Shown: positions 22,871 to 45,457, counted from the first letter of the stretch. The stretch is 64,000 bases of DNA from Clostridiales bacterium (GCA_024680655.1 JAILBY010000026.1:4109-68108), one strand, 5' to 3'. Notes: generated from the sequence alone by a model not told the origin. Translations and numbers: made by a program.

Positions 22871-22904
22871 TAAAAAAGTTTTGCTTTCGAGGTTCCTTTT
22901 TATA

Positions 22905-24494: not shown

Positions 24495-24505
24495 GAGATG
24501 ATTTT

Positions 24506-26813: not shown

Positions 26814-26843
26814 TTGACAATTCCGTATCGTGTGTACTAAAAT
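26814..26843 (+). promoter_or_regulatory. sigma70-like promoter candidate for module 3
   Basis: TTGACA (26814-26819), 18-nt spacer, TAAAAT (26838-26843). It lies upstream of ATG 26874. Confidence 0.35.
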
Positions 26844-26873
26844 ATAATAATTTTATATGATGTGAGAAGAAAA

Positions 26874-29800
26874 ATGATATTTGATATATCTAGAAAACAG
26901 ATTTTTCAGGAAGGTCGTATAGCTTGGGTTGATATTTATAAAGCGGTTGCCATAATTTTAATGGTGTTGGGACATGCTACAGGACGCTTTAATCTATGGG
27001 TTTATCAGTTTCATATGGCGGCATTTTTCTTTGTTTCTGGATATGTCGTTAATTACAGTAGACGTTCTTTGTCTAGAACTATTTGGGACAGGTTTTTTAC
27101 TCTGCTTTTACCATATTTTTCTGTTTTTACTCTTTTTCTTTCTCTTGAGTTTGTTTTGCAACATTTGGGCCTTAGACATTTCATTTTAGGAGATTTTAAC
27201 TATGTCGGTATTAAAAAGAGCCTTTTAGATTTGTTTGTTTATGGAAATTCCCACGCTTGTTTTTTAGGGGCTGGCTGGTTTGTCATTGCTCTTTTTGGCA
27301 TAGAGGTGTTGGGGAAAGTTTTATACGATCTTTTGTGCAAAAATAGGTTAGCATATTTTGTTTCTGCTGCAGCGATTTTCATTTTTGGTCGATGGATGGT
27401 GGATCAGGGGTATAGATTTCATATAGGTATTTTTTATGTGAATTCCATTTTTATCGGTCATTTTTACTTTGCTTTGGGGCATTTGGCTCGTAGTTCTGAA
27501 TTGTTAGAAATTATGCGCACAAAGCTTCCGTTGTGGGGGAAAGTTGCTTGTTTTGTGGTTGTAGTATGTCTTTTGCAAGTTTTTAGACATTTTGGTTTTT
27601 TGGTCGATTTTGCAAGCAATGTTTTTAATCATAATTTATGGTGCGAAGCCCTTGCCGCTATAAACGGTTGCATATTTTTGTTTCTCTGTTCTGTTTTTCT
27701 AGAGAGTATATATGCTCTCAGGAATCCTTTGTTCTTGCTTGGTTCGAATACACTTGGGGTTTTGTTTTTTCACTTTATGTTTTTTAAGCCAGTTCAGTTG
27801 TTGTTGATATTCGTAAAACGAAAAGACATTTCTTTATTGAATGAATTCGTTCCTAAATCTTTCGGCAGATACAGTTGGCCGTTGTTTGTTGTTGTCTCTA
27901 TTGTTTTGAGTGTCGGCCTATGGCTTTTACTTCTAAAGATTCCTTTGTTTAAGTTTTTGTTTGGAAAGTCTTCAGCTATTTATGACAAGTGGCGTTGTTT
28001 TGCTAAGCGTTCATTTGAACTGATTTTTGGCGTTGAAACAAAGACTTTGAGCATTTTAAATTATGCTTGTAAGACTAAGAGTTGTTTGTTAGAGAGTAAA
28101 ACTTGGATTTTGCCGTTTGCATTTTCCATTTTGGTGGCGATTCCAATGTTAACGCAGGGGGTTATGCTCAATGATGAGTTGCAAATAAATTCATGGGTGG
28201 AAGGCGGCTTCGCGACTTGTTTTAGTCATTGGTTTTCTTTGGCAAAAATGCAGGGACGACACATTTCTGCTTTTAGTTACGCGTTTTTTATGACTCTTGT
28301 AGAGCTTTTTGGAGGTCAGCGTTCTCCGCTAAATAGACTTTTGCCTGTTTTCTTGCATTTTTTCAGTGTGTTTTTATATTTTCGTTTTATAAAAAGAATT
28401 ACGGCGAATGGTAATTTTGCAAAATTTTGCTCTGTTGTTCTTTTGGCTTTTACTCCATTGCTTTTTGAGCATACTATACCAAATGCGTTTAATTATTTTT
28501 TACCAGATTTTATAATCCTATTGCTATCTTTTATTTTGTTTTATGATTATCAAATTTCGCACAAAAAACAGAAAATTATTTGGGCAATGATACTATTCTT
28601 CGCGGCTTGTTGTTCATACGAACTTTTTGTTACCTATGTTTTTGTTTATCTCGTTATAATTTTAGAAACACAAAAAACACGTCTTTTTTCAAAAAAGACT
28701 ATTCTTTTATTTGCTCCTGCTGTTATAACCGCTTTCATCTATGTCGCGTTTTACTGTGTTTTCAGAATTATGTTTCCATCTGGTTATTCTGGGAACACAA
28801 TCGGTTTTTCAGCACGGGGGGCGGCAAAAGTGCTGTTGGGAATGTTTCGATCTTCCGTTCCTGGTATTTTTTCATTAAACGGAAAATACAAATATTTTTC
28901 GGCTTTATATTCTAATAATCTTAATCCTATTGACTATTTTAGAATAATTGGCGTTGTTTTGTTGTTTTGTGCTATTTCGTATGTTTTGATAAAAAGACTT
29001 TTAGAATCTTCTGAGAAAAAGAATATAAAGACATTTGTTCTGCCGTTGTTTTGCGGTTGTGTTTATATGGTTTTGCCGGCCTTTCCTAACAGTCTTGGAC
29101 AAATGTATCAAAACGATTTTAATAGAGGCCACTGGTTGCTTGCCCTTCCAGTTTCGTATTTTTTGTTATATGCAGCCGTTTTCGCAGTTTGTTGGTGTTT
29201 GTTGCATTTTGCTCGGTTTGTTACAAGAAAAAAGTGTTCGGATATTGTTCCGTCTTTGATATCTATTGCGCTTGCTTTATATTTGATTCCCGTTCAGTAT
29301 TTAAATTCCATTGTGGCGAATCAGCAATATAAGGATTGGGAGCGTATTTGTGACATTCATGATTTGTTGGATACGGATTTTGTAAATGGGCTTGGTGGCG
29401 CGACCGCTTATGCTCCGGATTTTTTTGAAACTCGTAACCTTCTTGCAATAGACGCAGGACATTACGCCCTTTGGCAAAACTTAAAGAGGCATCGGCTTCA
29501 GATAGTGAACAGGACGTCTTTTGCCGATTTAAAAGACGATGAATGTTTTATAGCCATGCCATTTGACAAATACTTTGTTGTACAAGACAATGGCAGTGTG
29601 TTTGTTGTCAGCAAGAATCCGCTTTTTGGAAGAGCTCTTGTTCCTGTTTCGAGCGGAAACTGGAAAGAGGCAGTCTTGCAACGTCAATGGAAAGACAAGT
29701 CTTTCACAATATATGAGACAAACCTTGTGGTTGGTGATTCTATTGCTGCAATAGGAAAGACATTGAACAGAGCTTTTGTACAAAAAGGTTTTTATTCGGA

Positions 29801-30098
29801 CGGTTGGCTGCAAAAAGAAAGTTTGTTTAAGATTAGAACGGATACCTCTGGCCGTGTTGATTTTTCGTTTTATTATCCTTTTGATGACTGTGACGACAAA
29901 AAGCGTATTGTCATATCTGTCAACGGTGAAGAACATGGTTTCGTTGTAAGAGAAAACCTGTCAAATTTTTCCGTTTCTGCCCCTGCAAAACAAGTCGTTG
30001 ATGTAAAGATAGTGTGTTCATGGGAGTTGTCTGCAGAAAGAAAAAACGGCGATTCGCGAGAGTTGTGCATAGTGCTTTCAAAGATGAATGGAATGTAA
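26874..30098 (+). CDS. Acyltransferase-3 (OafA/AT3) domain fused to a large GT-C-like polytopic domain and a C-terminal soluble domain
   Basis: AT3 N-terminus IAWVDIYKAVAIILMVLGH with about 10 TM helices (aa 1 to about 370). A second polytopic block follows, with the loop motif MLNDELQINSW, and then a soluble tail of about 250 aa. The track start GTG 26862 is trimmed to ATG 26874. Confidence 0.65.
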   Translation: MIFDISRKQIFQEGRIAWVDIYKAVAIILMVLGHATGRFNLWVYQFHMAAFFFVSGYVVNYSRRSLSRTIWDRFFTLLLPYFSVFTLFLSLEFVLQHLGLRHFILGDFNYVGIKKSLLDLFVYGNSHACFLGAGWFVIALFGIEVLGKVLYDLLCKNRLAYFVSAAAIFIFGRWMVDQGYRFHIGIFYVNSIFIGHFYFALGHLARSSELLEIMRTKLPLWGKVACFVVVVCLLQVFRHFGFLVDFASNVFNHNLWCEALAAINGCIFLFLCSVFLESIYALRNPLFLLGSNTLGVLFFHFMFFKPVQLLLIFVKRKDISLLNEFVPKSFGRYSWPLFVVVSIVLSVGLWLLLLKIPLFKFLFGKSSAIYDKWRCFAKRSFELIFGVETKTLSILNYACKTKSCLLESKTWILPFAFSILVAIPMLTQGVMLNDELQINSWVEGGFATCFSHWFSLAKMQGRHISAFSYAFFMTLVELFGGQRSPLNRLLPVFLHFFSVFLYFRFIKRITANGNFAKFCSVVLLAFTPLLFEHTIPNAFNYFLPDFIILLLSFILFYDYQISHKKQKIIWAMILFFAACCSYELFVTYVFVYLVIILETQKTRLFSKKTILLFAPAVITAFIYVAFYCVFRIMFPSGYSGNTIGFSARGAAKVLLGMFRSSVPGIFSLNGKYKYFSALYSNNLNPIDYFRIIGVVLLFCAISYVLIKRLLESSEKKNIKTFVLPLFCGCVYMVLPAFPNSLGQMYQNDFNRGHWLLALPVSYFLLYAAVFAVCWCLLHFARFVTRKKCSDIVPSLISIALALYLIPVQYLNSIVANQQYKDWERICDIHDLLDTDFVNGLGGATAYAPDFFETRNLLAIDAGHYALWQNLKRHRLQIVNRTSFADLKDDECFIAMPFDKYFVVQDNGSVFVVSKNPLFGRALVPVSSGNWKEAVLQRQWKDKSFTIYETNLVVGDSIAAIGKTLNRAFVQKGFYSDGWLQKESLFKIRTDTSGRVDFSFYYPFDDCDDKKRIVISVNGEEHGFVVRENLSNFSVSAPAKQVVDVKIVCSWELSAERKNGDSRELCIVLSKMNGM

Positions 30099-30151
30099 AA
30101 TGATGTTTTGTGTTTATATATATGAGAGTAAATAAAATGATAGGAGGTTTC

Positions 30152-32548
30152 ATGATTTGCTTGTGTGATAGAAAAAGCTTAAGAAAATTTGTTCCCGATT
30201 TTGGTGTTTTGTTGTTCCTTTTTGTTTTCTCTGCGTTTTACTATTTCAAAATGAATGTTTGGCCTGTAAAACTAGCTGGAGACTTGGGGGATGGGTGGTT
30301 ATCGCCTATTTATTCGACGTACAACGTGTTCCGACATGGTGAACTTTCACTGTGGAACCCATACTTGTGGTGTGGCATGTCCGCAGCTGGACATACATGT
30401 CAACAAACTTTATACCCTATTTATTTGTTTCTATTTGTTTTAAGATTGCCCTCGTTTGTAACTTTTGCCACCATAGTATTTACTATTCATTTTTTTATTT
30501 TAAGTGCGGGACTTTATTTCTTTTTACGTGTTAATAAAGTGTCATGGATTTCTGCCTTTGTCGCTGTTATGATGGCAATAACTTCGGCGGGGTTAACATA
30601 CCAGTCTTGGTGGGCTTATCTTTTTACGGGGTTTGTTTGGCATCCTTTTGTCCTTGCTTTTTCCACGTTGGCCGCTAGACAAGACATCCATGTGGAAAAG
30701 TATGGATGGCAAAAAATGCTTTCATATATAGCACTTTCTGGTATCTGTTTGGGATTGTCAGGACTAGCATGTCCCGGACAGTCCCTTTTGGTAAATGTTT
30801 TGACTGTTTGTATATTATGGTTCTGCCTTGTGTGTGCTGATTTTTCTAAGAGAAATCTTGTAAATTTGACTTTTAGGTTTCTTGCAATTGGATTTTTTTC
30901 GCTTGCCGTTTGTGCACCTGTATTGTTTTTAACAATCGAATATTCAAAATATTGTGTTCGATATGTTCCTGAAATGGGATGGGTCTGGCCTGGAGAAAAA
31001 TTAACTATTGGAGTTTTTTTAAAGCATAATATTAATTTTTCAAGTTTTCAAAACTTGTTTCAGTTCCCTGAGGCTGTGGATTACGCAGGTGGTAGATTTG
31101 GTCCCGTTAATTTTTTGCTCTCTTTGTTTGGTGTCTGTGGTTTCTTTGTAAAAGTTAAAGAGGGGGTTAAGCCTATTCAACTTTTTCAAAAGGTCTTGTT
31201 TGCATGTGTGATTTTATATGCAAGCGATTTTGTGTTGCCCTATATCGCTTGGTATGTTCCGTATCTTAACGCCATTAGAGAACCATTTTTATATGTTCCT
31301 TACTTAATTCTTCCATTGACTTTTTTTGCTGGGGTTGGATTGGACGCTATGATTGCTTGCAAAGCTTCTCCTGTTAGACTTGCAAAATGTGTTTCGTCAC
31401 CAGTGGTTATGTTTTTTTTGCTTTTCATTGTTTTGTGCAGTACGATGGTGAATTATACTGGTGCAGGAAGGGGCAGGGCTAATATACCAATCATCTTGTT
31501 GTTGGTTGTTTCGTTTGTGTTTACAGTCGACAGATTTGATTCTGTTGCATTAATTAAATTATTGCGTAAGTTTGTTTTTTCTTGTCTTTTGGCGGCGTCT
31601 GTATTTGTTCAAATGAAAAATGTTTCCGGTTGGTTTTCTGCATTTTCGACAAATAATATCGTAGAGAGTAAATTGATAAGGGTGCTTGATAATTTGACAA
31701 GGATAGAAGATTTTGTCTCGATGAAAGATGGCATTGAAAGAAAATCTTTTGGACGTTTTTCTTCTTTTTGCACAAGAGCATGGAGTAGCAATAGTCTTTC
31801 TATTAATAGAATGAGAGATGTCTCGGGGTATATGAATCCCGCGATGGGGGCAGCTATTGTGCTGAATGGTTGTGACTTAAAAACAAGGGCCGTTCTTGAG
31901 GATATTAGATATTTTTTTGTTGCTGAAGATAAGACCGATGAACTCTATGATTGGTCGCATGGAGTTGTGAAAACTGAATTGGGAGCACAATGCTTAGGCA
32001 CTATTGATTTATTCCCTGATTACGACTCTGACAAATTGAAAACTTTTTCTGTATGGAAAGTAAAAACAAACGGGACTGCATGGCTTGTTAATGACATAAG
32101 GCCTGCTCCTTTCTTTGGAAAAATGAGCAAGTCGAAAGGTGACAAGATGCAAGAACTTCTTAAGCAAAATCTCATAGACTATGAGCGGACGGCTTGGATT
32201 TCAGAAGATAGTTTAGTTAAAATAGAGGCTGGCCATAATAATTGGAATGTTGATGTTCTTTCATATAATAGCAACAGTGTAGAGTATTCTGTCCAGTCAG
32301 AGAAAGCCTCTTTGTTTGTTACATCGGAATTATGGTATCCCGGCTGGGATATGTATGTTGACGGCAAAAAGACAAAAACTTTGCAAGTCAATTTGTGCTT
32401 TAGGGGATGTGAGGTTCCATCTGGAAGTCATGTAATCAGAATGGTTTACCATCCGAGGTTGTTTTTTGTGGGGATTGTTTTTTTGTTTTTGATTATTGTT
32501 TTTTTTGTTATAATGCTTGTTGTAAAGCGTGAGGAGGGCAGCGAATGA
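30152..32548 (+). CDS. YfhO-family polytopic membrane glycosyltransferase-like protein
   Basis: Many TM helices. C-terminal YfhO-type signature LWYPGWDMYVDGKKTKTLQVNLCFRGCEVPSGSHVIRMVYHP and a final TM helix. Start set to ATG 30152, 4 nt after AGGAGG (30142-30147); the ORF is open from 30110. Confidence 0.7.
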   Translation: MICLCDRKSLRKFVPDFGVLLFLFVFSAFYYFKMNVWPVKLAGDLGDGWLSPIYSTYNVFRHGELSLWNPYLWCGMSAAGHTCQQTLYPIYLFLFVLRLPSFVTFATIVFTIHFFILSAGLYFFLRVNKVSWISAFVAVMMAITSAGLTYQSWWAYLFTGFVWHPFVLAFSTLAARQDIHVEKYGWQKMLSYIALSGICLGLSGLACPGQSLLVNVLTVCILWFCLVCADFSKRNLVNLTFRFLAIGFFSLAVCAPVLFLTIEYSKYCVRYVPEMGWVWPGEKLTIGVFLKHNINFSSFQNLFQFPEAVDYAGGRFGPVNFLLSLFGVCGFFVKVKEGVKPIQLFQKVLFACVILYASDFVLPYIAWYVPYLNAIREPFLYVPYLILPLTFFAGVGLDAMIACKASPVRLAKCVSSPVVMFFLLFIVLCSTMVNYTGAGRGRANIPIILLLVVSFVFTVDRFDSVALIKLLRKFVFSCLLAASVFVQMKNVSGWFSAFSTNNIVESKLIRVLDNLTRIEDFVSMKDGIERKSFGRFSSFCTRAWSSNSLSINRMRDVSGYMNPAMGAAIVLNGCDLKTRAVLEDIRYFFVAEDKTDELYDWSHGVVKTELGAQCLGTIDLFPDYDSDKLKTFSVWKVKTNGTAWLVNDIRPAPFFGKMSKSKGDKMQELLKQNLIDYERTAWISEDSLVKIEAGHNNWNVDVLSYNSNSVEYSVQSEKASLFVTSELWYPGWDMYVDGKKTKTLQVNLCFRGCEVPSGSHVIRMVYHPRLFFVGIVFLFLIIVFFVIMLVVKREEGSE

Positions 32549-33699
32549 CTACCAAAAGAACGGAATGGATAGATTGCTTAAAATTTTTTGCGATATTGTC
32601 AGTTGTTATTCATCATGGTTATGGAGGATTTTATCATAAATGGTGGATAGTCTTTTTGACCCAATTTTCTGTTCCTGTTTTTGTTTTCTTGGGTGGAGCT
32701 AATATGTATCAGTCGCAAGAGCGCTCAATATCTGTTTCATATTGCAAAGATGTTTTTAGACGACTTAAGGCTTTGTTTGTTCCGTATTTGATTGTTACAG
32801 CGGCAATAGTTTTTTTTCAGGTTAGACAGGTTCATTTGATAAAAATTTGGGATTATGCTATACATTTTTCAGGTTCGGCTCAGTTTTATTTTATTCTGTT
32901 CTATGCACAGTTGATATTGATTTCTAGAGTTTTGTATGCAATCATTTATGCATGTAAAACATCTAAAAACAACATTTTGTGTTATATTGTTTCGATTTTG
33001 TTTATGTCTTTTGTTTGTGCCTTCTTATATAGGCACTCTTTTGTTCTAGAAGTTCATGGAGGTGGCAAATTCCTTTTTGGAGCGTCTTTTTTATTGTTAT
33101 ATTTTGTGGGCATGATATTTGGTGCGTATTATAAAGATGTAAAGTGGAATAAATGGGTGGCCCTTATTGTTTTTTGTTGCTCAATTATAGCAACATTTTT
33201 TTATGCTTATTATCTTTATAAAAAAGGTTTTACTATTGATAATACTATTATAAAAGTTTTTGGTAATGGAAATCCGCCAGGCTTAAATTCTATGTTTTTT
33301 GCTTTTTTGGTGTGCCTTGTGGGGTGGAGTGCAAATGAATTTATCGATGGTTTTTCTCTCGCTTTTGCATTCAAGTTTCGGACTGGATTTGCAATTCTTG
33401 GGCGGCATACACTGTATGTGTTTTTGATGCATTGCTTTGTTTATGCATTTTTCTTCAACAGTAAATATGGAAGGGTCTTAGGGGATAATATTTGGATTAG
33501 ACGTTGTTTCTATATTCCTGCTGAGATTTTTCTGCCAATTATGTTTGAAGTATATGTGAGACATTTTTTTTCCTTTTTTCAATCACTTGTTGATAATGCT
33601 AAACAATTGACGGCAAAGAATCCACTTGGAAAAAAACTTCTAAAATTGGCGATTGGGACTGGAGCGCTTTTGTTGTTATTGTTTATTTTATATAAATAG
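32545..33699 (+). CDS. Acyltransferase-3 family membrane O-acyltransferase
   Basis: TEWIDCLKFFAILSVVIHH, about 10 TM helices. ATGA overlap with the YfhO gene. Confidence 0.75.
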   Translation: MTTKRTEWIDCLKFFAILSVVIHHGYGGFYHKWWIVFLTQFSVPVFVFLGGANMYQSQERSISVSYCKDVFRRLKALFVPYLIVTAAIVFFQVRQVHLIKIWDYAIHFSGSAQFYFILFYAQLILISRVLYAIIYACKTSKNNILCYIVSILFMSFVCAFLYRHSFVLEVHGGGKFLFGASFLLLYFVGMIFGAYYKDVKWNKWVALIVFCCSIIATFFYAYYLYKKGFTIDNTIIKVFGNGNPPGLNSMFFAFLVCLVGWSANEFIDGFSLAFAFKFRTGFAILGRHTLYVFLMHCFVYAFFFNSKYGRVLGDNIWIRRCFYIPAEIFLPIMFEVYVRHFFSFFQSLVDNAKQLTAKNPLGKKLLKLAIGTGALLLLLFILYK

Positions 33700-33736
33700 A
33701 ACATTCAAAAAAAACATAGATACAGGAGTTTTCGAT

Positions 33737-35158
33737 ATGAGGATGATTAAATTTTTTTTAAACAAGTATAAGTTTTATTTAATTGGTTTTCTTTTCATTT
33801 TTCTTTTCAATGTTTTTGCGGCAATGCAGGTTGATTTATCAAGAGGCTATGACAATACTTGGTATTGGCGGGCGTATGAACCTTTTTTTAATGGTCATAA
33901 GGTCGGGTTGGGGGAGTTGCCAATTTGGAGGGGGGTGTTGTTTTTGTGCATTTGCGGTTTGCTTAATGTTTTTGGGCATGGCAAATTTACTTATTGGATT
34001 TTGTTTTCTTCCTTTTTGCATGCATTTGTTTTTATGTCAATAATTCCCTATGTTTTTGATTTTTCTGAACGTCCTTCCATTTTCTTTCGTTCATTTAAGA
34101 AAATGTTGGCTTCTGTTTTTTGCTTTATTTTGCTTTTTTGTTTATATTCCGGGCTTTTTTATTATACGTTGTCCGATGTTTTTGCACTTTATATGTCTTT
34201 ATTATCTGTCTTTTTTATGAAAAAAATTATTGAGGAAAATTCTTTTTCATCTCTGATGTTTTTTTCCTTTTTGTGCGCAGTGTTTGCTTATTCTTCTTAT
34301 AATTCAAGGGGAATTTATCTTTTTTTCCTTGCATTGGAAATAATCATAGCTTTTCTTATTATATTGAAAAAATCTATTTCTGTTCATAAGCGCCTTATTT
34401 GTGTTTGTGCGTTTGTTATAGGTATATTGATGGCGGGGGTTCCGCAAGCAATTTTTAATTATAAGCATGGTTTGAGTGACGGTGTAGAGAAGGCGAAGAT
34501 TTCTATTCTTATTCCGAATTATTTTAATTATGCCGGCCAAATTTATAATGGACTTCAATGGCAACGTGTTGACGGGTATATAGGTCGGCCAGGCGTTATG
34601 GAGCAAAGCACTCCTTTTATGGAGTCTCAAGACTTAGTTGGTCGCAAACTATTTGAATTGAACGGTGGAAATGGGACGATTAAGGGGGCTATAAAGCTTA
34701 TTATAAAGTATCCGTTTGAATATGCGGGCGTTTGTATGAGGCATTTTATGAATATGACTTTTCCTTGCTGGCCGAACCAATATGTATGTGAATTGAATAA
34801 TAATAAATTGCCATACGCAATTATATCTCTTTTGCTTATGTATTCTTTTATTTTGTCTGCGATTCTTAGATGCTTAAAATCCTTGACTTCATATTGGATG
34901 TTGGCACCTGTTTTTTTAGTTTGCTTTATGTGCTTGCCAGATGGTAGGGAAATGCGTTATATCATAGGATTTTTTTTCATCATGGCAGGAACATTGTTTT
35001 TCAACGTTGACTATAAAGCTCTTGCTTTAAAAATAAAAGAGAATTGGATAGCTGTCCTTGTTGTTTTTGTTCTTTTTTCTGCTGTGATGATTTCGCAGTG
35101 GACTTGGTTTTTGATGACGCAGGAAACTGGAATTCCAATTTTTATATTGGGAAAATAG
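33737..35158 (+). CDS. Polytopic membrane protein (Wzy/GT-C-like candidate), function unknown
   Basis: Start ATG 33737, 8 nt after AGGAG (33724-33728). More than 10 hydrophobic segments. No motif recognised. Confidence 0.55.
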   Translation: MRMIKFFLNKYKFYLIGFLFIFLFNVFAAMQVDLSRGYDNTWYWRAYEPFFNGHKVGLGELPIWRGVLFLCICGLLNVFGHGKFTYWILFSSFLHAFVFMSIIPYVFDFSERPSIFFRSFKKMLASVFCFILLFCLYSGLFYYTLSDVFALYMSLLSVFFMKKIIEENSFSSLMFFSFLCAVFAYSSYNSRGIYLFFLALEIIIAFLIILKKSISVHKRLICVCAFVIGILMAGVPQAIFNYKHGLSDGVEKAKISILIPNYFNYAGQIYNGLQWQRVDGYIGRPGVMEQSTPFMESQDLVGRKLFELNGGNGTIKGAIKLIIKYPFEYAGVCMRHFMNMTFPCWPNQYVCELNNNKLPYAIISLLLMYSFILSAILRCLKSLTSYWMLAPVFLVCFMCLPDGREMRYIIGFFFIMAGTLFFNVDYKALALKIKENWIAVLVVFVLFSAVMISQWTWFLMTQETGIPIFILGK

Positions 35159-35227
35159 ATGCGTCATTTTTTTCTTTCTGTTGCATAAATTGTATGTATT
35201 TGCTAGAATTATCTTATGAGGGTGTAA

Positions 35228-35653
35228 ATGAGTGACATTATTCCTGTTTTTGATCAAGTTAAGTTTTTTGAGTTTAATCAGAGGGGCGACAATCGAGGGC
35301 ATCTTGTTGTTGTTGAGGGTGCGCAAGATGTCCCCTTTGAGATAAAAAGAGTTTTTTACATCTATGGTTCTGACCGTGATGTTGTCCGCGGACAGCATGC
35401 AAATCGTAAGAGCGAATTTGTCTTGATAAATGTTTCTGGAACAAGCAAGGTACGGGTTAAGGATGGAAAGGATAATGAGGCCATATTCTCTTTGAATAGA
35501 CCTCATACTGGAATATATCTTCCTAAAATGATATGGAAAGACATGTATGATTTTAGTGAAGATTCGGTTTTGTTGTGTCTTGCAAGTGAGCATTATGATT
35601 CTGAAGAGTATATCCGTAACTATGATGATTATGTGAAAGAGGTCTGTAAATGA
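35228..35653 (+). CDS. FdtA/QdtA-type sugar 3,4-ketoisomerase (cupin)
   Basis: GDNRGHLVVVEGAQDVPFEIKRVFYIYG...VRGQHANRK...LASEHYDSEEYIRNYDDY matches the WxcM/FdtA cupin pattern. Confidence 0.85.
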   Translation: MSDIIPVFDQVKFFEFNQRGDNRGHLVVVEGAQDVPFEIKRVFYIYGSDRDVVRGQHANRKSEFVLINVSGTSKVRVKDGKDNEAIFSLNRPHTGIYLPKMIWKDMYDFSEDSVLLCLASEHYDSEEYIRNYDDYVKEVCK

Positions 35654-35657
35654 TATT

Positions 35658-36605
35658 ATGAAACTCTCAATTATTATCCCTGTTTATTACAATCAAGACA
35701 ATCTCAAACCTCTATATTATGACATAAAGAAGAAAGTCATTGACATTGTTGACTACGATTATGAAATCGTAATGGTCAATGATGGCTCAAAAGATGGCAG
35801 TTATTCTGTCATGAAGCAACTTGCAGAAATCGATAAAAATATCAAAATTATTAGCCTATCCCGGAATTTCGGCTCACACTCTGCGATTTTGTGTGGGCTT
35901 GCCCACTGCTCAGGGGATTGCGCGGTTGTAAAAGCGGCGGATTTGCAAGAACCTACAGAAATGATTCTTGAAATGGTTGGAAGCTGGAAAAAAGGAAACA
36001 ATGTAGTTCTTGCGGTTCGTGGTGGCAGGGAAGAAAAGAAAAGTCAGACATTCTTTGCAAATCTCTATTATTGGATGGTTCGCAAGACTTCATTCCCTAA
36101 TATGCCCAAAACAGGTTTTGACATTTATCTGATTGACCGCAAAGTTATAAATGTTTTGAGCATGCTTGATGAAATAAACAGCGCGCTGACAGGTCAGATT
36201 CTATGGAGCGGGTTTAAAACTGATTGCGTATATTATACACGATTGGAAAGAAAAATTGGGAAAAGTCGTTGGACGTTAAAGAAAAAAATTAGGCTCGTTA
36301 CAGATACATTGTTTAGTTTTTCGACACTGCCTATAAAGCTTGTTTCTGTGGTTGGATTCCTTGCGTTTACAGGCTCTGTTATATGGGCAATTTGCCTTAT
36401 TATTTCAAAACTGTTGGGGATTATTCCGGTAAGTGGATGGACGACACTTATCGTTTTCAATTTGTTCAGTTTTGGCGTGATTATGCTTACGCTCGGTATT
36501 CTTGGTGAATACTTATGGCGAACTTTTGACGCGACGCGCAAGCGTCCTCCATATATCGTTGAGGAATCCAATATGGATGAGGAAGAAAAATCATGGAAAA
36601 AATAA
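35658..36605 (+). CDS. ArnC/GtrB-like GT2 polyprenyl-phosphate glycosyltransferase
   Basis: LSIIIPVYYNQDNL, YEIVMVNDGSKDGS, SRNFGSHSAILCGL, plus two C-terminal TM helices. Confidence 0.85.
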   Translation: MKLSIIIPVYYNQDNLKPLYYDIKKKVIDIVDYDYEIVMVNDGSKDGSYSVMKQLAEIDKNIKIISLSRNFGSHSAILCGLAHCSGDCAVVKAADLQEPTEMILEMVGSWKKGNNVVLAVRGGREEKKSQTFFANLYYWMVRKTSFPNMPKTGFDIYLIDRKVINVLSMLDEINSALTGQILWSGFKTDCVYYTRLERKIGKSRWTLKKKIRLVTDTLFSFSTLPIKLVSVVGFLAFTGSVIWAICLIISKLLGIIPVSGWTTLIVFNLFSFGVIMLTLGILGEYLWRTFDATRKRPPYIVEESNMDEEEKSWKK

Positions 36606-37687
36606 TGCCAAACCGCCTCGACAGAGGTTTTTATATGTACCAAAAGGAATTTGAGATAAAGGCTCTCGAAGTCCTGCGTTCCGGCTGGTACATTCTTGGA
36701 AACGAAGTGAAGCAGTTTGAAAACGAGTTCGCTTCTTTTACTGGTTCAAAGCACTGCGTGGGACTGGCAAGTGGTCTTGACGCGCTTTGGATAGCTTTCC
36801 GTGTTCTTGGGATTGGCAAGGACGATGAAGTAATCGTTCAGGGGAACACATATATTGCGAGCGTTATGGGCATTACAATCAACGGGGCGACGCCAGTCTT
36901 TGTTGAACCAGATGAATACTTCAATATAGATGCCTCAAAAATCGAAGAAAAGATAACTCCAAAAACAAAGGCGATTCTTGTAGTTCATCTTTACGGACAA
37001 GCTTCAAATATGAAACCCATAACTGACTTATGTAAAAAATACAATCTCCGTCTTGTGGAAGACTGCGCGCAGTCGCATGGTGCCTGCTTTGACGGGAAAA
37101 TGACAGGAACGTTTGGTGACATTGGGTGCTTTTCTTTTTATCCTTCAAAGAACCTTGGCGCTTTTGGCGACGCCGGCGCTATTACAACTGACGATGAAAA
37201 ACTTGCTGAAGCGGTAAGAATCTTCAGAAATTATGGAAGCGAAAAGCGCTATCATAATAAGGTTGTCGGGGCAAATTCACGCCTTGACGAATTGCAAGCT
37301 GGACTTCTTAGAGTTCGACTCACTCATATAAAAGAGCTTGCTGAAGAAAAGCAGAAAATTTGCGGCCGTTATCTGGAAGAATTACATAATGATAAAATTC
37401 AGCTCCCTAAAATTCGTGATGGTGCGACACATATTTGGCATCAGTTTGTAATTCGTTCAAAACAACGCGACGAGCTTATGAAATATCTTGACGAAAAAGG
37501 AATCGGGACGATAATTCATTATCCAATTCCACCGCACCTTTCGGAAGCGTACTCATATCTTGGAATGAAAGGAGGTTCTCTCCCCGTTACAGAGTTGTAT
37601 GCGAAAGAAGTGCTTTCGATTCCTCTTTACAATGGCATGACAGAAGAAGAGCAAGCTCGTGTAATAAAAGCTATTAATGTTTTTTAA
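36593..37687 (+). CDS. DegT/DnrJ/EryC1-family PLP-dependent sugar aminotransferase
   Basis: GNEVKQFENEFASFTG, GLDALW, and FSFYPSKNLGAFGDAGAITT (PLP lysine). Confidence 0.9.
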   Translation: MEKIMPNRLDRGFYMYQKEFEIKALEVLRSGWYILGNEVKQFENEFASFTGSKHCVGLASGLDALWIAFRVLGIGKDDEVIVQGNTYIASVMGITINGATPVFVEPDEYFNIDASKIEEKITPKTKAILVVHLYGQASNMKPITDLCKKYNLRLVEDCAQSHGACFDGKMTGTFGDIGCFSFYPSKNLGAFGDAGAITTDDEKLAEAVRIFRNYGSEKRYHNKVVGANSRLDELQAGLLRVRLTHIKELAEEKQKICGRYLEELHNDKIQLPKIRDGATHIWHQFVIRSKQRDELMKYLDEKGIGTIIHYPIPPHLSEAYSYLGMKGGSLPVTELYAKEVLSIPLYNGMTEEEQARVIKAINVF

Positions 37688-38141
37688 GACAATAAAGATG
37701 AACAGAAAAACGCTGGATGAATTTATACAATTTATAAAGTTTTGCATTGTAGGCGTTACGAACAATGTGATTTTTTATGTCGTTAACATTGCCATTCTTT
37801 TTCTATTTAATGAGCGTGCTTTTGAATGGGATTACATGATCGCAAACATCGCGGGCTTTCTAATCAGCGTTCTCTGGTCGTTTTATTGGAACAACAAGTT
37901 CGTCTTCAAGGCGGGCGAAAGTGAGAAGCGTTCTCTTTTGAAGAGTTTGCTTAAGACATATATGGCTTATGGGTTTACAGGAGTTGTTTTAAACAATGTT
38001 CTTTCTTATGTGTGGATTGAGGTGTTTGGAGTTTCCAAATTTATTGCTCCACTTATAAATCTGTTTCTTACAGTTCCTGTAAATTTCCTAATCAATAAAC
38101 TATGGGCTTTTAGAACAACAAAAAATGGAGGAGAACAATGA
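37677..38141 (+). CDS. GtrA-family small membrane protein (candidate lipid-linked sugar translocase)
   Basis: FIKFCIVGVTNNVIFYVVN and NKLWAFR; 4 TM helices. Alternative start ATG 37698. Confidence 0.8.
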   Translation: MFFKTIKMNRKTLDEFIQFIKFCIVGVTNNVIFYVVNIAILFLFNERAFEWDYMIANIAGFLISVLWSFYWNNKFVFKAGESEKRSLLKSLLKTYMAYGFTGVVLNNVLSYVWIEVFGVSKFIAPLINLFLTVPVNFLINKLWAFRTTKNGGEQ

Positions 38142-38172
38142 TTCATCCAACTGCTGATAGGAGAGATAGATA

Positions 38173-38712
38173 ATGGCTAAAGAAATAAAGAGAGAAAATC
38201 TTTGTGGCAAATATGTAACATTGAGAGAAGTGTCTGTTGATGATGCAGATTTCATTCTTGCTCTTAGATGCGATGAAAAAAAAGCGAGGTTTCTTAACAA
38301 AATTAACAATGACAAAAATGCGCAGGTTGCCTACATAAAAAGATATCTTGCGACCACTGATGAATGGTATTTTATCAGCGAAAGTAAGGACGGCAGGAAA
38401 CTTGGGGCTATCAGAATATATGATTTGAGGAGCGACAGTTTTTCTTTTGGAAGCTGGGTTATGATAGACGGAGTTACTATGTCTGAAGCCTTTGAAACTG
38501 ATTATCTTACTAGAATGTACGGATTTAATGTACTTGGGTTTAACAAGAATCATTTTGATGTGCGAAAAGATAATGAAAAAGTCTTAAAGTATCATCAATT
38601 CCTGGGGGCGAAAAAAGTAGGAGAAACGGAACTTTGTTATTTGTATGAAGTTACCAAGAACGAATTTGTAAAAAGAGCAAACCTTATGTGGAAGTTGTCA
38701 GAGTCCAAATAA
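38173..38712 (+). CDS. GNAT-family N-acyltransferase
   Basis: 179 aa. AGGAG lies 9 nt upstream. RimJ/L-like N-terminus VTLREVSVDDADFILALR and a beta-strand core. Confidence 0.6.
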   Translation: MAKEIKRENLCGKYVTLREVSVDDADFILALRCDEKKARFLNKINNDKNAQVAYIKRYLATTDEWYFISESKDGRKLGAIRIYDLRSDSFSFGSWVMIDGVTMSEAFETDYLTRMYGFNVLGFNKNHFDVRKDNEKVLKYHQFLGAKKVGETELCYLYEVTKNEFVKRANLMWKLSESK

Positions 38713-38756
38713 AAACTGCTTAAAAACTATAAATATATATGTAAGGAGCAATAATT

Positions 38757-39047
38757 ATGAAAGAAAAAATTAAAGCATTAGTAATCGACTCTTTGAATGA
38801 GTCAAAAGAAACAAATAATCTCGATTTTGAGATTAATGACGAGACAATTCTTTTGGGGGAAAACGCCGTAATGGATTCATTCGACTTTGTTTCATTCGTT
38901 TCTACTCTTGAAGAAAAGATTGCAGATGCTTTTGGCAAATCAATAACTGTTGTAAGCGAGAAGGCGTTCTCAAAGAAATACAGTCCGTTCAAAACAATTG
39001 ACCGTATTTCTGATTACATCATCGAACTTTTGAATGAGGCTGAGTAA
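38757..39047 (+). CDS. Acyl carrier protein-like
   Basis: 96 aa. AAGGAG lies 8 nt upstream. LLGENAVMDSFDFVSFVSTLEEK carries a DSx phosphopantetheinylation-type motif. Confidence 0.7.
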   Translation: MKEKIKALVIDSLNESKETNNLDFEINDETILLGENAVMDSFDFVSFVSTLEEKIADAFGKSITVVSEKAFSKKYSPFKTIDRISDYIIELLNEAE

Positions 39048-39740
39048 ATGATTATCCTTATAACAGGTACAAGCCGGGGCATAGGAAAATATCTTGCAGA
39101 AAAGTTTCTTGCTGCAGGTCATACAGTAATCGGTTTCTGTCGTAGCGAATGTGATATTCATAATGAGAATTTTTATCATTTTACAGCCGATGTTACCGAT
39201 GAAAAAGGTGTTGTAAAAGCTCTTGGTGAAGTACGGAAGCAGTTTGGTTGTATTGATGTTCTTGTCAATAATGCCGGAATTGCTTCCATGAATCATTTCT
39301 GTCTTACACCCCTTGAAACTGCAAAGCGGATTATGAATGTGAACTTCTTCGGAACTTTCCTTATGACTCGTGAATGTGCAAAACTTCTTCGCAAGAGCAA
39401 GAATGCGAGAATCATTAATTTTAGCACCGTGGCCGTTCCTCTCAACCTTGAAGGGGAGGCTTCTTATGCGGCATCTAAATCTGCGATTGAAACTCTCACT
39501 CGCACAACTTCGAAAGAACTCTCTGGTTATGGTATTACGGTAAACGCTGTTGGTCCTGTGCCGATTAAAACGGCTCTTATTGCAGGCGTGCCGGAAGATA
39601 AAATTCAGAACTTGCTTTCTCATCAGGCAATCAAACGCTTTGGTGAACCAGAAGATGTTTATAATGTAATTGATTTTTATATCAAGCCAGAGAGCAACTT
39701 TATTACAGGTCAGATTATGTATCTTGGAGGGATTAATTAA
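39048..39740 (+). CDS. SDR, 3-oxoacyl-ACP reductase (FabG)-like
   Basis: ILITGTSRGIGKYL, NNAGI, YAASKSAIE (YxxxK). Confidence 0.88.
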   Translation: MIILITGTSRGIGKYLAEKFLAAGHTVIGFCRSECDIHNENFYHFTADVTDEKGVVKALGEVRKQFGCIDVLVNNAGIASMNHFCLTPLETAKRIMNVNFFGTFLMTRECAKLLRKSKNARIINFSTVAVPLNLEGEASYAASKSAIETLTRTTSKELSGYGITVNAVGPVPIKTALIAGVPEDKIQNLLSHQAIKRFGEPEDVYNVIDFYIKPESNFITGQIMYLGGIN

Positions 39741-41065
39741 TGTCTTGCATTGACTTTATTATAGATGACATAAAATCTTTTGGAGAAGAAATTGCAATCG
39801 TCACTGATGGAAAAGAGTATACCTACAAAGATTTGCTTTCTGAGTATGAAAATGCAGTTGCTTTTCTTGATGAAAATAAAGTTCCTGACTGTTCGGTTGT
39901 AGCGCTTCGTGGTGAGTTCTCTCCTAAAACAATCGGCATGATGCTTGCGATTATTGGAAAGAATTGCATATATGTTCCAGTTTCTACGGCTGTTAAAGAA
40001 CCTGTAAAATATATCGAGATTTCAGAAGTTCAGTTCTATATCGACGGTTTAACTGTTACGAAATACGACACGATGCCAAAACATCAGATTCTGACTGGCC
40101 TTATTAACGAAAATCATCCAGGACTTGTTTTATTTTCTTCTGGAACAACAGGTGACCCAAAAGCGGCTGTTCATAATCTTGTTCCCATGCTTGAGAAATA
40201 CAAGGCAAAGGGTAAGAAAATAAAGTCACTTGCATTTTTGTTGTTTGACCATATTGGCGGTTTTAATACTGTTATGTACAACATTTCAAACGGAGGCATG
40301 CTTGTAACCCTTAAGAACAGAAGCCCGGAAGAAGTTGCTTCATATATTGAAAAATATAAGCTAGAGTTGCTCCCGACCTCTCCGTCTTTCCTCAATATGA
40401 TTTTGTATTCTCACATTTATGAAAAGTATGATTTTTCTTCACTAAAAATTATCAGCTACGGAACAGAACCTATGCCGGAATCTACGCTTAAAATGATGCA
40501 TCAGATATTCCCGGATGTAAAACTTAAGCAAACTTATGGACTTTCAGAAGTCGGCATTATGCGCACTAAGTCTGAAAGTTCTGATTCTCTATGGCTTAAA
40601 GTTGGTGGCGATGAAGATCATCAGATTAAGATTGTGGATGGAATTCTTTTTATTAAGTCAAAGATGTCTATGCTCGGTTATTTGAATGCTCCAAGTCCTT
40701 TTGATGAAGATGGTTGGATGAATACAAAGGATCGTGTTGAACAGAAAGGCGAATACATAAAAATTCTTGGTCGTGTGTCAGAACTTATAAATGTTGGTGG
40801 CGAGAAGGTTTATCCTGCTGAAGTTGAAAGCGTTTTGCTTGAAGTTCCGGGGGTAAAGGACGCAATCGTTGGTAAAATGCCGAATCCTATTCTTGGAAGT
40901 GTTGTTACCTGCAAGGTTGCCGCCGATGAAGGACATGATTTGACAGAGCTCAAGAAGGCAATACAAAAGCATTGTACTGAACGTTTGGAGAAATTCAAGA
41001 GGCCAGTGAAGATTGAGTTTCGGGAATCTTCGTTCAATACTGCAAGATTTAAAAGATTACGATAA
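39740..41065 (+). CDS. AMP-dependent synthetase/ligase (acyl-ACP or acyl-CoA ligase, DltA-like size)
   Basis: Adenylation motifs LFSSGTTGDPKAAVH, SYGTEPM, DGWMNTKDRV, NVGGEKVYPAEVE. Its start shares a base with the SDR stop. Confidence 0.9.
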   Translation: MSCIDFIIDDIKSFGEEIAIVTDGKEYTYKDLLSEYENAVAFLDENKVPDCSVVALRGEFSPKTIGMMLAIIGKNCIYVPVSTAVKEPVKYIEISEVQFYIDGLTVTKYDTMPKHQILTGLINENHPGLVLFSSGTTGDPKAAVHNLVPMLEKYKAKGKKIKSLAFLLFDHIGGFNTVMYNISNGGMLVTLKNRSPEEVASYIEKYKLELLPTSPSFLNMILYSHIYEKYDFSSLKIISYGTEPMPESTLKMMHQIFPDVKLKQTYGLSEVGIMRTKSESSDSLWLKVGGDEDHQIKIVDGILFIKSKMSMLGYLNAPSPFDEDGWMNTKDRVEQKGEYIKILGRVSELINVGGEKVYPAEVESVLLEVPGVKDAIVGKMPNPILGSVVTCKVAADEGHDLTELKKAIQKHCTERLEKFKRPVKIEFRESSFNTARFKRLR

Positions 41066-41078
41066 TGGTTTGATAAAA

Positions 41079-41268: not shown

Positions 41269-41295
41269 GCAGCTGGCAGCTGCCGTTTCTTTTCT
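41269..41295 (+). terminator. Short GC hairpin plus T-rich tail (weak intrinsic terminator candidate)
   Basis: gcagct-ggc-agctgc (41269-41283) followed by cgtttcttttct. Confidence 0.3.
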
Positions 41296-41320: not shown

Positions 41321-41886
41321 TGTACAATAAAGTTCGCAATTTGGGGTAGGAAAAAGCCATTGAAAATTCCAAAATGTTGGTGACCAAACTAACAAAGAGG
41401 AAAAGACAATGGCCAAGAAGAGCGATACCACATTTTTCGAAAAAAACTACTGGATTTTGTAACCGAAAAGGATCCGATGCTGGAGATGCTTCAGTGGGTG
41501 ATGGACAAGTTCATGGAGATTGAAGTCGCCCACAAAACGGGAGCTGGAAAAGGGGTTCACTCAAGAAAGCGAGCAGGCGCTCATTCAGGTCGTGCAGGAA
41601 TGCTGGCTGAACGGAGTCTCCACCCGCAAGATTTCAAGCACGAACACGCTTGAGCGGCTCAACCGCGAAATCCGCAGACGTTCGTCCGTTGTCGGCATTT
41701 TTCCTTCAACGGATTCTTACATCAGGCTGATAACAAGCTATCTGCTTGAGTATTCAGAGGACTGGCAGACTGAGAGGAGCTACATGAATGCCGGCTCAAT
41801 AAAAGTTCAAAAGGAGATTCTGTTTAACGCAGCATGATGGATTTTTTGGCTTTTTTCAAAAACGAAATTGCGAACTAAACTTGACA
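41321..41886 (+). mobile_element. IS256-family insertion sequence relic with internal deletions and recognisable terminal inverted repeats
   Basis: Transposase fragments: MAKKSDTTFFEK(frameshift at A7)LLDFVTEKDPMLEMLQWVMDKFMEIEVAHKTGAGKG, ALIQVVQECWLNGVSTRKI, and STNTLERLNREIRRRSSVVGIFPSTDSYIRLITSYLLEYSEDWQ. Left agttcgcaattt (41331-41342) and aaaaagcca (41351-41359) are mirrored by tggcttttt (41847-41855) and aaattgcgaact (41865-41876). Confidence 0.75.
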
Positions 41887-42760: not shown

Positions 42761-43107
42761 CAGATAGATTGAGGGTGTTTGTTACAATTGGAATTGTTTT
42801 GTATTTTTTGTTGTTGTCTTTGTTGGTAAAAAAAAAACATATTTCGCTTAGATATGCTCTTGTTTGGGGCGTTTTGGGGTTAGTTTTTTTGGCTTTGGAT
42901 GTTTTTCCCGGTTTGCTTGTCCAAATATGTGATTTTTTTGGAATCCAAACACCTGTTTTTGCTTTATTTGCTGTTTTTTTTACACTTGTTTTTTTTGTTC
43001 TTATTGTTTTTACAGGGGTCGTTAGTAGACAGGCAGAAAAAATACGGACTCTAGTTCAAACTGCGGCATTGTTGGAAAAACGAATTATGAATATGGAACA
43101 AGATTGA
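42757..43107 (+). CDS. Small membrane protein, DUF2304-like partner of the GT2
   Basis: ATGA overlap; AGGAG lies 8 nt upstream of ATG 42757. Three or four TM helices, then the amphipathic tail EKIRTLVQTAALLEKRIMNMEQD. Contains an in-frame A10 tract (42828-42837). Confidence 0.6.
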   Translation: MTDRLRVFVTIGIVLYFLLLSLLVKKKHISLRYALVWGVLGLVFLALDVFPGLLVQICDFFGIQTPVFALFAVFFTLVFFVLIVFTGVVSRQAEKIRTLVQTAALLEKRIMNMEQD

Positions 43108-43152
43108 TTGAGAAACTCAAGATAAATAATCTGTAAGAGAGGAAAGAATAAT

Positions 43153-45414: not shown

Positions 45415-45457
45415 GATTGTTTGAAAATATATGAGGCGGGGGGAGAGGAAACGAAAT

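Follow-up and report, generated by a model that had tools for sequence, protein, structure and literature searches.

A 64,000-nucleotide stretch of a Clostridiales metagenome-assembled genome (MAG; GCA_024680655.1, JAILBY010000026.1:4109-68108), which we refer to as the window, carries at positions 26862-41065 an operon that probably encodes a three-component lipid-carrier glycosylation system dedicated to an N-acylated 3-amino-3,6-dideoxyhexose. The source organism is an uncultured gut or rumen Clostridiales bacterium. The window is a single long plus-strand run of envelope-glycan genes (NCBI locus tags beginning K5917_) on a contig of 69,855 bases, and the 64-kb block surrounding the operon consists of teichoic-acid and cell-wall-polysaccharide genes, including TagF-like and LicD genes, two Glf genes, and many glycosyltransferases. 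All twelve genes of the operon, which we also call the module, lie on the plus strand and abut or overlap their neighbors by a few bases (table 1). Assignments were made with Pfam, NCBIfam, and PDB sequence searches, and enzyme families and conserved gene linkage are what sequence or structure prediction shows.

We hypothesize that a 4-keto-6-deoxyhexose linked to deoxythymidine diphosphate (dTDP), made by RmlA and RmlB encoded elsewhere, would be converted to the 3-keto sugar by the FdtA/QdtA-type enzyme and transaminated at C3 by the QdtB-like enzyme. The FdhC-like GNAT would N-acylate the resulting amine with an acyl group supplied by an adjacent cassette, in which a ligase would load an acid onto a carrier protein and a FabG-like short-chain dehydrogenase/reductase (SDR) would reduce its keto group. 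The GtrB/ArnC-type family 2 glycosyltransferase (GT2) would then move the finished sugar to undecaprenyl phosphate, the GtrA protein would help the lipid-linked sugar reach the outer face of the membrane, and a 473-amino acid (aa) GT-C candidate would attach it to a glycopolymer of the cell wall. YfhO may act likewise with another acceptor, and the two AT3 proteins may O-acylate the product. In this scheme, the nucleotide carrier, the C4 configuration, the acyl group, the order of the steps, the acting GT-C enzyme, and the acceptor are what we infer. In outline, the route had been proposed in an original prediction made from the DNA sequence alone, and it gains support from our analysis in that every step has a matching enzyme family and the gene set is conserved in related loci.

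Predicted sugar synthesis and loading of the lipid carrier

The original prediction named an FdtA-like 3,4-ketoisomerase, a DegT aminotransferase, an ArnC/GtrB-like GT2 with C-terminal helices, and a GtrA-like translocase, and each of these family assignments holds. The best solved relative of the ketoisomerase is QdtA (E-value 5e-37), ahead of FdtA (E 1e-28). The aminotransferase is closest among solved structures to QdtB (E 2.7e-115, 388 bits), followed by 7N63, WlaRG, and DesV, whereas the C4 aminotransferases (ArnB, PseC-like enzymes, and perosamine synthase) score 135-210 bits, which places the protein in the C3-specific aminotransferase clade. Its QdtB-type relatives aminate C3 of dTDP-3-keto-6-deoxyhexoses. 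The GT2 matches Synechocystis GtrB (5EKP) over its residues 2-303, membrane helices included (E 8e-55), and also matches ArnC (E 6e-35); its NCBIfam matches are PgfS (217 bits) and ArnC (145 bits), both under the equivalog cut-offs. With hydrophobic segments at residues 218-282, it has the C-terminal helices that distinguish the GT2 of three-component polyprenyl-phosphate systems, and we predict that it makes a lipid-phosphate-linked sugar on the cytoplasmic face of the membrane. The second component of such systems is represented by the GtrA protein (named "GtrA family protein" by NCBI), whose gene shares 11 bases with the end of the aminotransferase gene and lies about 1 kb away from that of the GT2, and which is presumed to be the flippase, or a partner, for the lipid-linked sugar.

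The original prediction also held that RmlA- and RmlB-type genes are missing, and neither Pfam searches of all major open reading frames (ORFs) nor a six-frame search with one nucleotidyltransferase and one 4,6-dehydratase as queries found RmlA- or RmlB-like genes in the 64-kb window. The window thus lacks the thymidylyltransferase and 4,6-dehydratase that begin the dTDP-3-amino-3,6-dideoxyhexose pathway, which may be completed in trans by genes outside it. An FnlA-like dehydratase encoded at 43153 is an unlikely source of the precursor because related modules lack it. With respect to the configuration at C4, the two positions altered in the QdtA double mutant 4ZU7 (Y17R, R97H) are occupied by Arg and Lys in the ketoisomerase of the window and by Arg and Arg in 5TPU and 7N67. 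Given that similarity to QdtA and QdtB exceeds similarity to FdtA and that Lys stands at the QdtA Arg97 position, we lean weakly toward the gluco form, 3-amino-3,6-dideoxyglucose (Qui3N).

Gene linkage argues that these enzymes work together. A scan of species-representative genomes with a five-sequence alignment of the GT-C candidate yielded 17 loci, 11 of which encode FdtA within 10 kb of the GT-C relative and 10 of these 11 a GtrB-type GT2 as well. The FdtA-bearing loci include Lachnospiraceae, a rumen Spirochaetaceae MAG, two Pseudomonas genomes, a Chitinibacteraceae genome, and a Rhodocyclaceae genome. Among the contexts of close homologues, three metagenome loci have the same order, FdtA-[GT-C]-GT2-DegT, and a Lachnospiraceae MAG has FdtA, GT-C, and GT2 together; FdtA, GT2, and DegT are likewise adjacent in related Lachnospiraceae, rumen Spirochaetaceae, and unassigned metagenome contigs. 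Pseudomonas and a Chitinibacteraceae genome also have this gene set, arranged as wxcK-L-M-N and accompanied by a nearby relative of the 473-aa protein. In loci of the Clostridia/Spirochaete type, identity to the window is 70-88% for FdtA, 67-83% for GT2, and 77-91% for DegT but only 25-39% for GT-C. Conserved cytoplasmic enzymes with a diverging GT-C are the pattern expected of a fixed donor pathway serving acceptor-specific transferases, and we suggest that this is what these loci encode. The GT2 clade adjoins FdtA and DegT in ten or more loci; it appears to track the amino-sugar genes because the GT2 of a locus for a different sugar (L006 in our numbering of related loci) is only 29% identical. 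By this comparative genomic evidence, the gene arrangement is not accidental.

One related locus (L007, in the rumen Spirochaetaceae MAG RUG11842) has a G+C content of 54%, and its FdtA, GT2, and DegT proteins are 77-85% identical to those of the window; a GT-C gene is also present. Such identity despite very different G+C content suggests recent horizontal transfer between rumen phyla.

Table 1. Features of the operon and its borders, with positions counted from the first nucleotide of the window
Feature	Size	Position	Strand	Basis
Candidate operon promoter, sigma-70-like		26814..26843	+	TTGACA-18-TAAAAT, 11/12; best match of the region, inside the 893-bp gap
AT3 fusion protein	1078 aa (NCBI: 1074 aa)	26862..30098 (NCBI start 26874)	+	AT3 at residues 20-357, 82.5 bits
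YfhO-family membrane protein	812 aa	30110..32548 (alternative start 30152)	+	Pfam YfhO (PF09586)
AT3-family membrane acyltransferase	384 aa	32545..33699	+	Pfam Acyl_transf_3, 62.8 bits
Polytopic membrane protein, GT-C-fold candidate	473 aa	33737..35158	+	Predicted structure, gene neighborhood
FdtA/QdtA-type cupin 3,4-ketoisomerase	141 aa	35228..35653	+	Pfam FdtA, 154 bits
Polyprenyl-phosphate GT2 (GtrB/ArnC/PgfS type)	315 aa	35658..36605	+	Full-length GtrB/ArnC match, C-terminal membrane helices
Pyridoxal phosphate-dependent sugar C3 aminotransferase (QdtB/FdtB type)	364 aa	36593..37687	+	Pfam DegT, 375 bits
GtrA-family small membrane protein	154 aa	37677..38141	+	Pfam GtrA_DPMS_TM (PF04138), 74.5 bits
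FdhC-like GNAT N-acyltransferase	179 aa	38173..38712	+	Pfam Acetyltransf_3
Divergent acyl carrier protein candidate, acidic	96 aa	38757..39047	+	Family profile match to acyl carrier protein 2L4B
FabG-like SDR (3-oxoacyl reductase type)	230 aa	39048..39740	+	Pfam adh_short, adh_short_C2
AMP-forming ligase	441 aa	39740..41065	+	Pfam AMP-binding, AMP-binding_C
Weak terminator-like hairpin after the last gene		41269..41283	+	Pattern match only
Degraded IS256/Mutator-family transposase fragment		41520..41837	+	Pfam Transposase_mut, last 49 positions of the model only

Predicted N-acylation and the putative carrier-protein cassette

The only strong solved relative of the GNAT is FdhC (5KTA; E 2.6e-23, about 35% identity over 156 residues). 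At the family level, the protein therefore supplies the N-acyltransferase of a dTDP-3-amino-3,6-dideoxyhexose pathway, and its predicted substrate is the nucleotide sugar, to be acylated at the 3-amino group. FdhC is a 3-hydroxybutanoyl transferase that places (R)-3-hydroxybutanoyl on the dTDP-linked form of 3-amino-3,6-dideoxygalactose (Fuc3N) in O-antigen pathways (PMC4869667). Every related locus examined encodes an N-acyltransferase, the type of which varies: the slot is filled by GNATs in L004 and L005 (at the same position), L009-L011, and L013, in L002 and L007 by a QdtC/FdtC-like enzyme of the left-handed beta-helix type, and by a Hexapep enzyme in L003.

Downstream of the GNAT gene are the genes for the carrier protein, the SDR, and the ligase. 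The original prediction described a GNAT, an acyl carrier protein (ACP), an SDR, and a ligase as an acylation set; the GNAT, SDR, and ligase are confirmed by Pfam, and the ACP assignment has moderate evidence. The 96-aa protein, annotated as "hypothetical protein" by NCBI, has no match to PF00550 even at E 10, but its family profile matches the ACP 2L4B (E 5.7e-5), the invariant D40-S41 pair falling on the LDSLDF motif for phosphopantetheine attachment. Some of its homologues are named "acyl carrier protein" by the Joint Genome Institute, and Treponema and Spirochaetia MAGs encode close relatives of it. The best NCBIfam models for the SDR are 3-oxoacyl-ACP reductases, all under their cut-offs. 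We predict that the ligase, whose best solved relatives are FadD13 and 4-chlorobenzoate ligase, charges the carrier protein with a carboxylic acid. Because the ligase would load an acid and the SDR would reduce a keto group, our best guess for the product is a 3-hydroxyacyl group such as 3-hydroxybutanoyl.

These three genes form a discrete, portable cassette. The DNA of the trio is 79.7% identical to that of five metagenome loci of lower G+C content (L025-L029, about 32%), with borders at exactly 38753-41066 and protein identities of 86-92%, the SDR being 92% identical to its L025 copy. In those loci, the trio follows a Polysacc_deac_1 gene and a gene for a 362-aa protein that has no Pfam match, and no FdtA and no GNAT are found around it; the 362-aa protein may be an undescribed carrier-protein-dependent N-acyltransferase.

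Given this mobility, we considered that the module may work as proposed while the GNAT draws on metabolic acyl-coenzyme A (CoA), such as acetyl-CoA or 3-hydroxybutanoyl-CoA, and the cassette serves an AT3 protein or some other acylation. We judge this unlikely, although it accommodates the self-contained nature and sharp borders of the cassette, its occurrence elsewhere beside a deacetylase and the 362-aa protein and apart from GNAT and FdtA, the degraded transposase about 450 bp downstream of the trio, and the fact that FdhC uses acyl-CoA. Against it, the cassette begins only 45 bp after the GNAT gene and within the same operon, and in L004 the core genes and a GNAT are joined by another toolkit, which has an AMP ligase and a small unannotated ORF alongside FabA, a thiamine pyrophosphate enzyme, NeuB, and LuxE. 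Moreover, the cassette stands elsewhere again beside amine-generating chemistry, the deacetylase, which would fit amide formation, and a ligase (RfbL) and carrier protein (RfbK) have been proposed for perosamine N-acylation in Vibrio cholerae O1 (PMC12208996). RfbK/RfbL resemble the cassette in proposed function: within a surface-polysaccharide cluster, the AMP ligase and its small carrier protein would prepare a short hydroxy acid for amide linkage to an amino sugar. They differ from it in sugar, acid, and transferase. By adjacency and by this analogy only, we favor the reading that the GNAT would transfer the product of the cassette to the amine.

A Dlt-like role for the cassette was rejected, given that positions 26862-41065 encode no MBOAT protein and that the only MBOAT of the window (22851-24494), 14 kb upstream of the cassette, has its own carrier protein and FkbH-type loader. 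That MBOAT is part of a second, separate carrier-protein acylation set at 19630-25969. The set also encodes the FkbH-like loader (19630-21438), an ACP of 80 aa in which the DSL motif is of the classic form (21435-21677), a MaoC dehydratase, an SDR, and a protein of 487 aa that faintly matches GDSL lipases. This set could be a Dlt-style system that esterifies an extracytoplasmic polymer with a glycerate-derived acyl group.

Candidate extracytoplasmic transferases and acyltransferases

The gene at 33737, named as a GT-C-like candidate in the original prediction, encodes a 473-aa protein with no Pfam or NCBIfam match and only four close homologues; a profile search extends its family to 794 cluster representatives. 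An AlphaFold2 model built from a 102-sequence alignment has a predicted local distance difference test score (pLDDT) of 94.1 and a predicted template modeling (TM) score of 0.93. The top 15 Foldseek matches in the PDB are all GT-C proteins, among them STT3, Pmt4, ALG3, ALG9, ArnT, PglB, and AftD (probability 0.9-1.0, E 0.01-0.2, TM about 0.44). GT-C enzymes carry a catalytic acid in the loop after the first membrane helix, and in the 473-aa family D39, Y43, R65, and G66 are invariant in the first predicted outside loop, which follows that helix. A predicted GT-C fold with an acidic residue at this place, albeit with weak Foldseek E-values, makes the 473-aa protein the best candidate for transferring the sugar from the lipid carrier to an acceptor outside the membrane.

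YfhO is the second candidate. The original prediction of a YfhO transferase candidate starting at 30152 is upheld as to family, the Pfam match scoring 42.9 bits against a cut-off of 28.5 and covering only the C-terminal 78 residues (713-790), but the primary candidate is now the 473-aa protein. In NCBIfam, the protein matches PgfM1 and PgfM2 weakly, at their C-termini. Membership of the YfhO family is further supported by a topology of 13 N-terminal and one C-terminal membrane segments, which fits the family, and by homology along 98% of its length (29% identity) to an L002 protein that Pfam annotates as YfhO; in L009, YfhO follows GtrA.

It is quite improbable that the 473-aa protein is instead a polymerase, a ligase, or flippase-like and that YfhO alone is the transferase. 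Wzy_C matches weakly in 4 of 102 members of the 473-aa family (best E 0.0024), the Foldseek E-values are weak, and YfhO, a known partner of GtrB/CsbB-type enzymes, is present in the window, L002, and L009; however, the top 15 structural matches, all GT-C, include no Wzy, WaaL, or transporter, the first outside loop has an invariant Asp as in GT-C enzymes, and most related loci have a relative of the 473-aa protein and no YfhO within reach. A profile comparison of the 473-aa family with YfhO, and likewise with the C-terminal half of the 1078-aa protein discussed below, yielded no match (probability about 1%), an uninformative result because one side of the comparison was a single sequence.

Taking the 473-aa protein as the acting transferase, we advance a broader proposal with more doubt than conviction. 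The protein would found an undescribed GT-C family of about 800 clusters, lacking a Pfam or NCBIfam model, that is specialized, in Gram-negative as well as Gram-positive bacteria, for transferring N-acyl-3-amino-3,6-dideoxyhexoses to surface polymers from their undecaprenyl phosphate carrier; swaps of portable carrier-protein cassettes would vary the N-acyl group, and the GNAT would take its product directly from the carrier protein rather than from CoA.

Two AT3 O-acyltransferases had been predicted, and both are present. The 384-aa protein, homologues of which are encoded inside or beside the module in L002, L005, and L007, probably O-acetylates or O-acylates the sugar or the polymer. The 1078-aa protein had been listed as GT-C-like under its start at 26874; the gene is there, but the protein is an AT3 fusion, and a GT-C fold of the remainder could not be shown. 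The AT3 domain is followed by about 700 residues without a family match that contain about eight more membrane segments and a C-terminal beta-sandwich. Homologues of this C-terminal part number only three, two of them also AT3 fusions; an AlphaFold2 model of the half, made with only four sequences, has a pLDDT of 55, and Foldseek returned only CBM35-like matches, for the tail. An NDELQ motif is invariant after the first membrane segment of this half. We regard the protein as a probable O-acyltransferase accessory, and together YfhO and the AT3 proteins appear to be accessories that recur beside the module in L002, L005, L007, and L009.

A homologue of the 1078-aa protein adjoins the module in L002, and another adjoins a different GtrA/GT2 rare-sugar module in L006. 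In the latter (10001-22129), the AT3 fusion (1101 aa) is encoded beside a nucleotidyltransferase, a 4,6-dehydratase, an RfbH-like DegT protein (444 aa), GtrA, split transketolase subunits, an epimerase, and a 314-aa GtrB-type GT2. From this locus it seems that these bacteria deliver unusual sugars by lipid carrier more widely; in L006, the sugar is perhaps branched or of the 3,6-dideoxy type.

Known counterparts, alternatives, and surrounding genes

The scheme is not unprecedented, and we view the module as a Gram-positive variant of the one proposed for the O-antigen side branch of Xanthomonas. The wxc region 3 of Xanthomonas campestris encodes an aminotransferase (wxcK), a GT2 (wxcL), an acetyltransferase-isomerase fusion (wxcM), and a small (wxcN) and a large (wxcO) membrane protein (PMC4878081, PMC3071791, PMC12573098), and has been described as combining nucleotide-sugar modification with sugar translocation functions (PMC3071791). 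Mutants of wxcK and wxcN lose the side branch of N-acetylated Fuc3N (Fuc3NAc) from the rhamnan O-antigen (PMC4878081; also PMC3071791, PMC12573098). As the closest precedent, the region shares with the module a C3 aminotransferase, a GT2, an FdtA-type isomerase, and a GtrA-like small membrane protein, and there too a 3-amino-3,6-dideoxyhexose is added as a side branch. The differences are several. WxcM is a fusion with a beta-helix acetyltransferase, as is kept in a 318-aa fusion of the Pseudomonas relatives, whereas the isomerase of the module stands alone at 141 aa with an H-A-N motif; the module has an FdhC-like GNAT and an acyl-carrier cassette, so its acyl group is probably not acetyl; the product in Xanthomonas is lipopolysaccharide, whereas here a cell-wall polymer of a Gram-positive-type Clostridiales host would be decorated; and YfhO and two AT3 proteins are added. 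WxcO of strain B100 has about 750 aa (PMC2238763), and by this size alone it is not obviously of the same family as the 473-aa protein.

Other systems share parts of this logic. With the Gtr (GtrA/GtrB) system of O-antigen glucosylation and the Gram-positive CsbB/GtcA/YfhO and PgfS/PgfM systems, the module has in common a GtrB-type GT2, a protein of the GtrA family, and transferases with a GT-C fold, YfhO among them. In those systems, glucose or N-acetylglucosamine (GlcNAc) comes from sugars linked to uridine diphosphate (UDP), and there are no dedicated sugar-synthesis genes, whereas the module embeds a set for amino-deoxy-sugar synthesis and N-acylation. The Arn pathway, which modifies lipid A with 4-amino-4-deoxy-L-arabinose, follows the same sequence of a nucleotide amino sugar, N-acylation, an ArnC-like GT2 acting on undecaprenyl phosphate, flipping, and attachment by a GT-C enzyme, but in the module the flippase candidate is GtrA rather than ArnE/F, the aminotransferase is of the C3 QdtB type rather than the C4 ArnB type, and the acceptor would not be lipid A. 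Because Pfam and NCBIfam scans of the module region found no ArnA (dehydrogenase/formyltransferase), ArnD (deformylase), ArnT, or ArnE/F family members, and only the ArnC-like GT2 and a distant relative of ArnB, we consider the module an analogue of Arn and not a member. The FdhC/QdhC clusters of Escherichia coli O103, Salmonella O55, Acinetobacter, and Hafnia (PMC4869667) have the same isomerase, C3 aminotransferase, and GNAT-type steps, which they combine with Leloir glycosyltransferases and an acyl-CoA donor, in contrast to the lipid-carrier wiring and adjacent carrier-protein cassette of the module.

Several points weigh against a dedicated lipid-carrier system for such a sugar. The organism is known only as a MAG, and every step is deduced from sequence. 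To our knowledge, the characterized GtrB, ArnC, and CsbB enzymes use UDP-sugars, and a dTDP-sugar is our extrapolation; with no RmlA or RmlB in the window, the precursor and its nucleotide are therefore assumed. FdhC takes acyl-CoA and not an acyl carrier protein, and since the cassette occurs elsewhere apart from GNAT and FdtA, its link to the GNAT rests on adjacency. GtrA was not detected in the fetched DNA of several related loci; these loci were found by a search with GT-C, so their linkage reads only from GT-C to FdtA and GT2; and the Foldseek E-values (0.01-0.2, with TM about 0.44) behind the GT-C assignment are weak. Finally, the HxH motif of cupin 3,4-ketoisomerases is a catalytic His pair, and the ketoisomerase of the window lacks the second His, which is present in all solved homologues shown: its motif is H-A-N, as compared with H-S-H in QdtA and H-A-H in the others. 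The first His, the residue mutated in QdtA entry 4O9G, is kept. RG[Q/K]HAN is found in all ten Clostridia/Spirochaete-type module copies compared (the window and loci from L002-L013), and proteobacterial copies have HAH; because all ten share the Asn, we interpret H-A-N as a trait of the clade rather than decay.

One alternative is that two unrelated neighbors are involved, one (FdtA, the aminotransferase, and the GNAT) making a nucleotide sugar for a repeat unit assembled by cytoplasmic Leloir glycosyltransferases, like those of O-antigens and S-layer glycans, and the other, composed of GT2, GtrA, YfhO, and GT-C, a glucose or GlcNAc side-chain system. We find this very unlikely. It is true that known GtrB-type enzymes use UDP-Glc or UDP-GlcNAc, that all biochemically characterized FdtA/QdtA pathways of which we are aware feed Leloir transferases (for O-antigen cases, see PMC4869667), and that the window holds many other GT2 and GT4 genes. 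Yet the genes are interleaved in the order FdtA-GT2-DegT-GtrA with overlaps, the same interleaving occurs in proteobacterial loci, the GT2 found beside FdtA and DegT in ten or more loci is the conserved one (67-83%, against 29% for the different-sugar GT2), and Xanthomonas mutants of this gene region lose the amino-sugar branch (PMC4878081). We give equally little credence to a Pgf-like O-glycosylation of a surface protein with the lipid-linked amino sugar. In its favor, the best NCBIfam match of the GT2 (PgfS) and the only ones of YfhO (PgfM1 and PgfM2) are all to the Streptococcus mutans Pgf system; against it, these matches fall far under the equivalog cut-offs (217 vs 500 bits; 25-28 vs 1400-1500 bits), the module lies inside a 64-kb teichoic-acid and cell-wall-polysaccharide block, and the Xanthomonas counterpart decorates a polysaccharide (PMC4878081).

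A dedicated lipid-carrier system would extend the side-branch scheme from glucose, GlcNAc, and 4-amino-4-deoxyarabinose (Ara4N) to rare amino-deoxy sugars bearing an N-acyl group in Clostridia of the gut and rumen, the envelope glycans of which are almost unstudied, and would give a sizeable unannotated membrane-protein family a testable function. It would also imply that surface epitopes vary in a modular way, the donor pathway being conserved while the GT-C enzymes diverge and the N-acyl cassettes are exchanged. In the Xanthomonas counterpart, epitopes of this kind serve as phage receptors (PMC12573098), and they may be immune targets too. The module further offers candidate enzymes for lipid-linked or polymer-linked derivatives of Qui3N and Fuc3N.

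The operon is preceded by a gap of 893 bp that contains the candidate promoter, a consensus match in a region whose total of sigma-70-like sites is not above shuffled expectation. At the other end, the transposase fragment marks a recombination scar beyond the cassette and divides the module from the next gene block. Past this scar, positions 42065-49996 encode a 231-aa GT2 that has no membrane helices and is paired with a DUF2304 membrane protein, followed by an FnlA/CapE-like dehydratase, a GT4, a 125-aa EamA-like protein of ArnE/F-like size, an RmlD-like reductase, a UDP-GlcNAc 2-epimerase, and, at the end, a 710-aa DUF7657/DUF7654 membrane protein. This block is possibly a second lipid-carrier module; the genes from the dehydratase to the 2-epimerase are those of a 2-acetamido-2,6-dideoxy-L-hexose pathway.

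A megablast against plasmids gave no matches, and an Rfam scan of the window found no RNA family. Identical proteins turned up only on Logan contigs of 2-3 kb. The UDP-galactopyranose mutase genes of the window lie at 17621-18760 and 58709-59839, and the window encodes cytidylyltransferase in addition to TagF-like and LicD proteins. Interspersed with glycosyltransferase genes at 6699-12497 and 382-2010 are those for two radical-SAM enzymes (one has a SPASM domain), several methyltransferases, and a protein fusing a GNAT to a methyltransferase, which hints at further unusual glycan tailoring. Two polytopic proteins with weak DUF6056 and GT87 matches (55225-56721 and 61725-63017) could be additional GT-C-type transferases, which would bring the total in the window to five or more.

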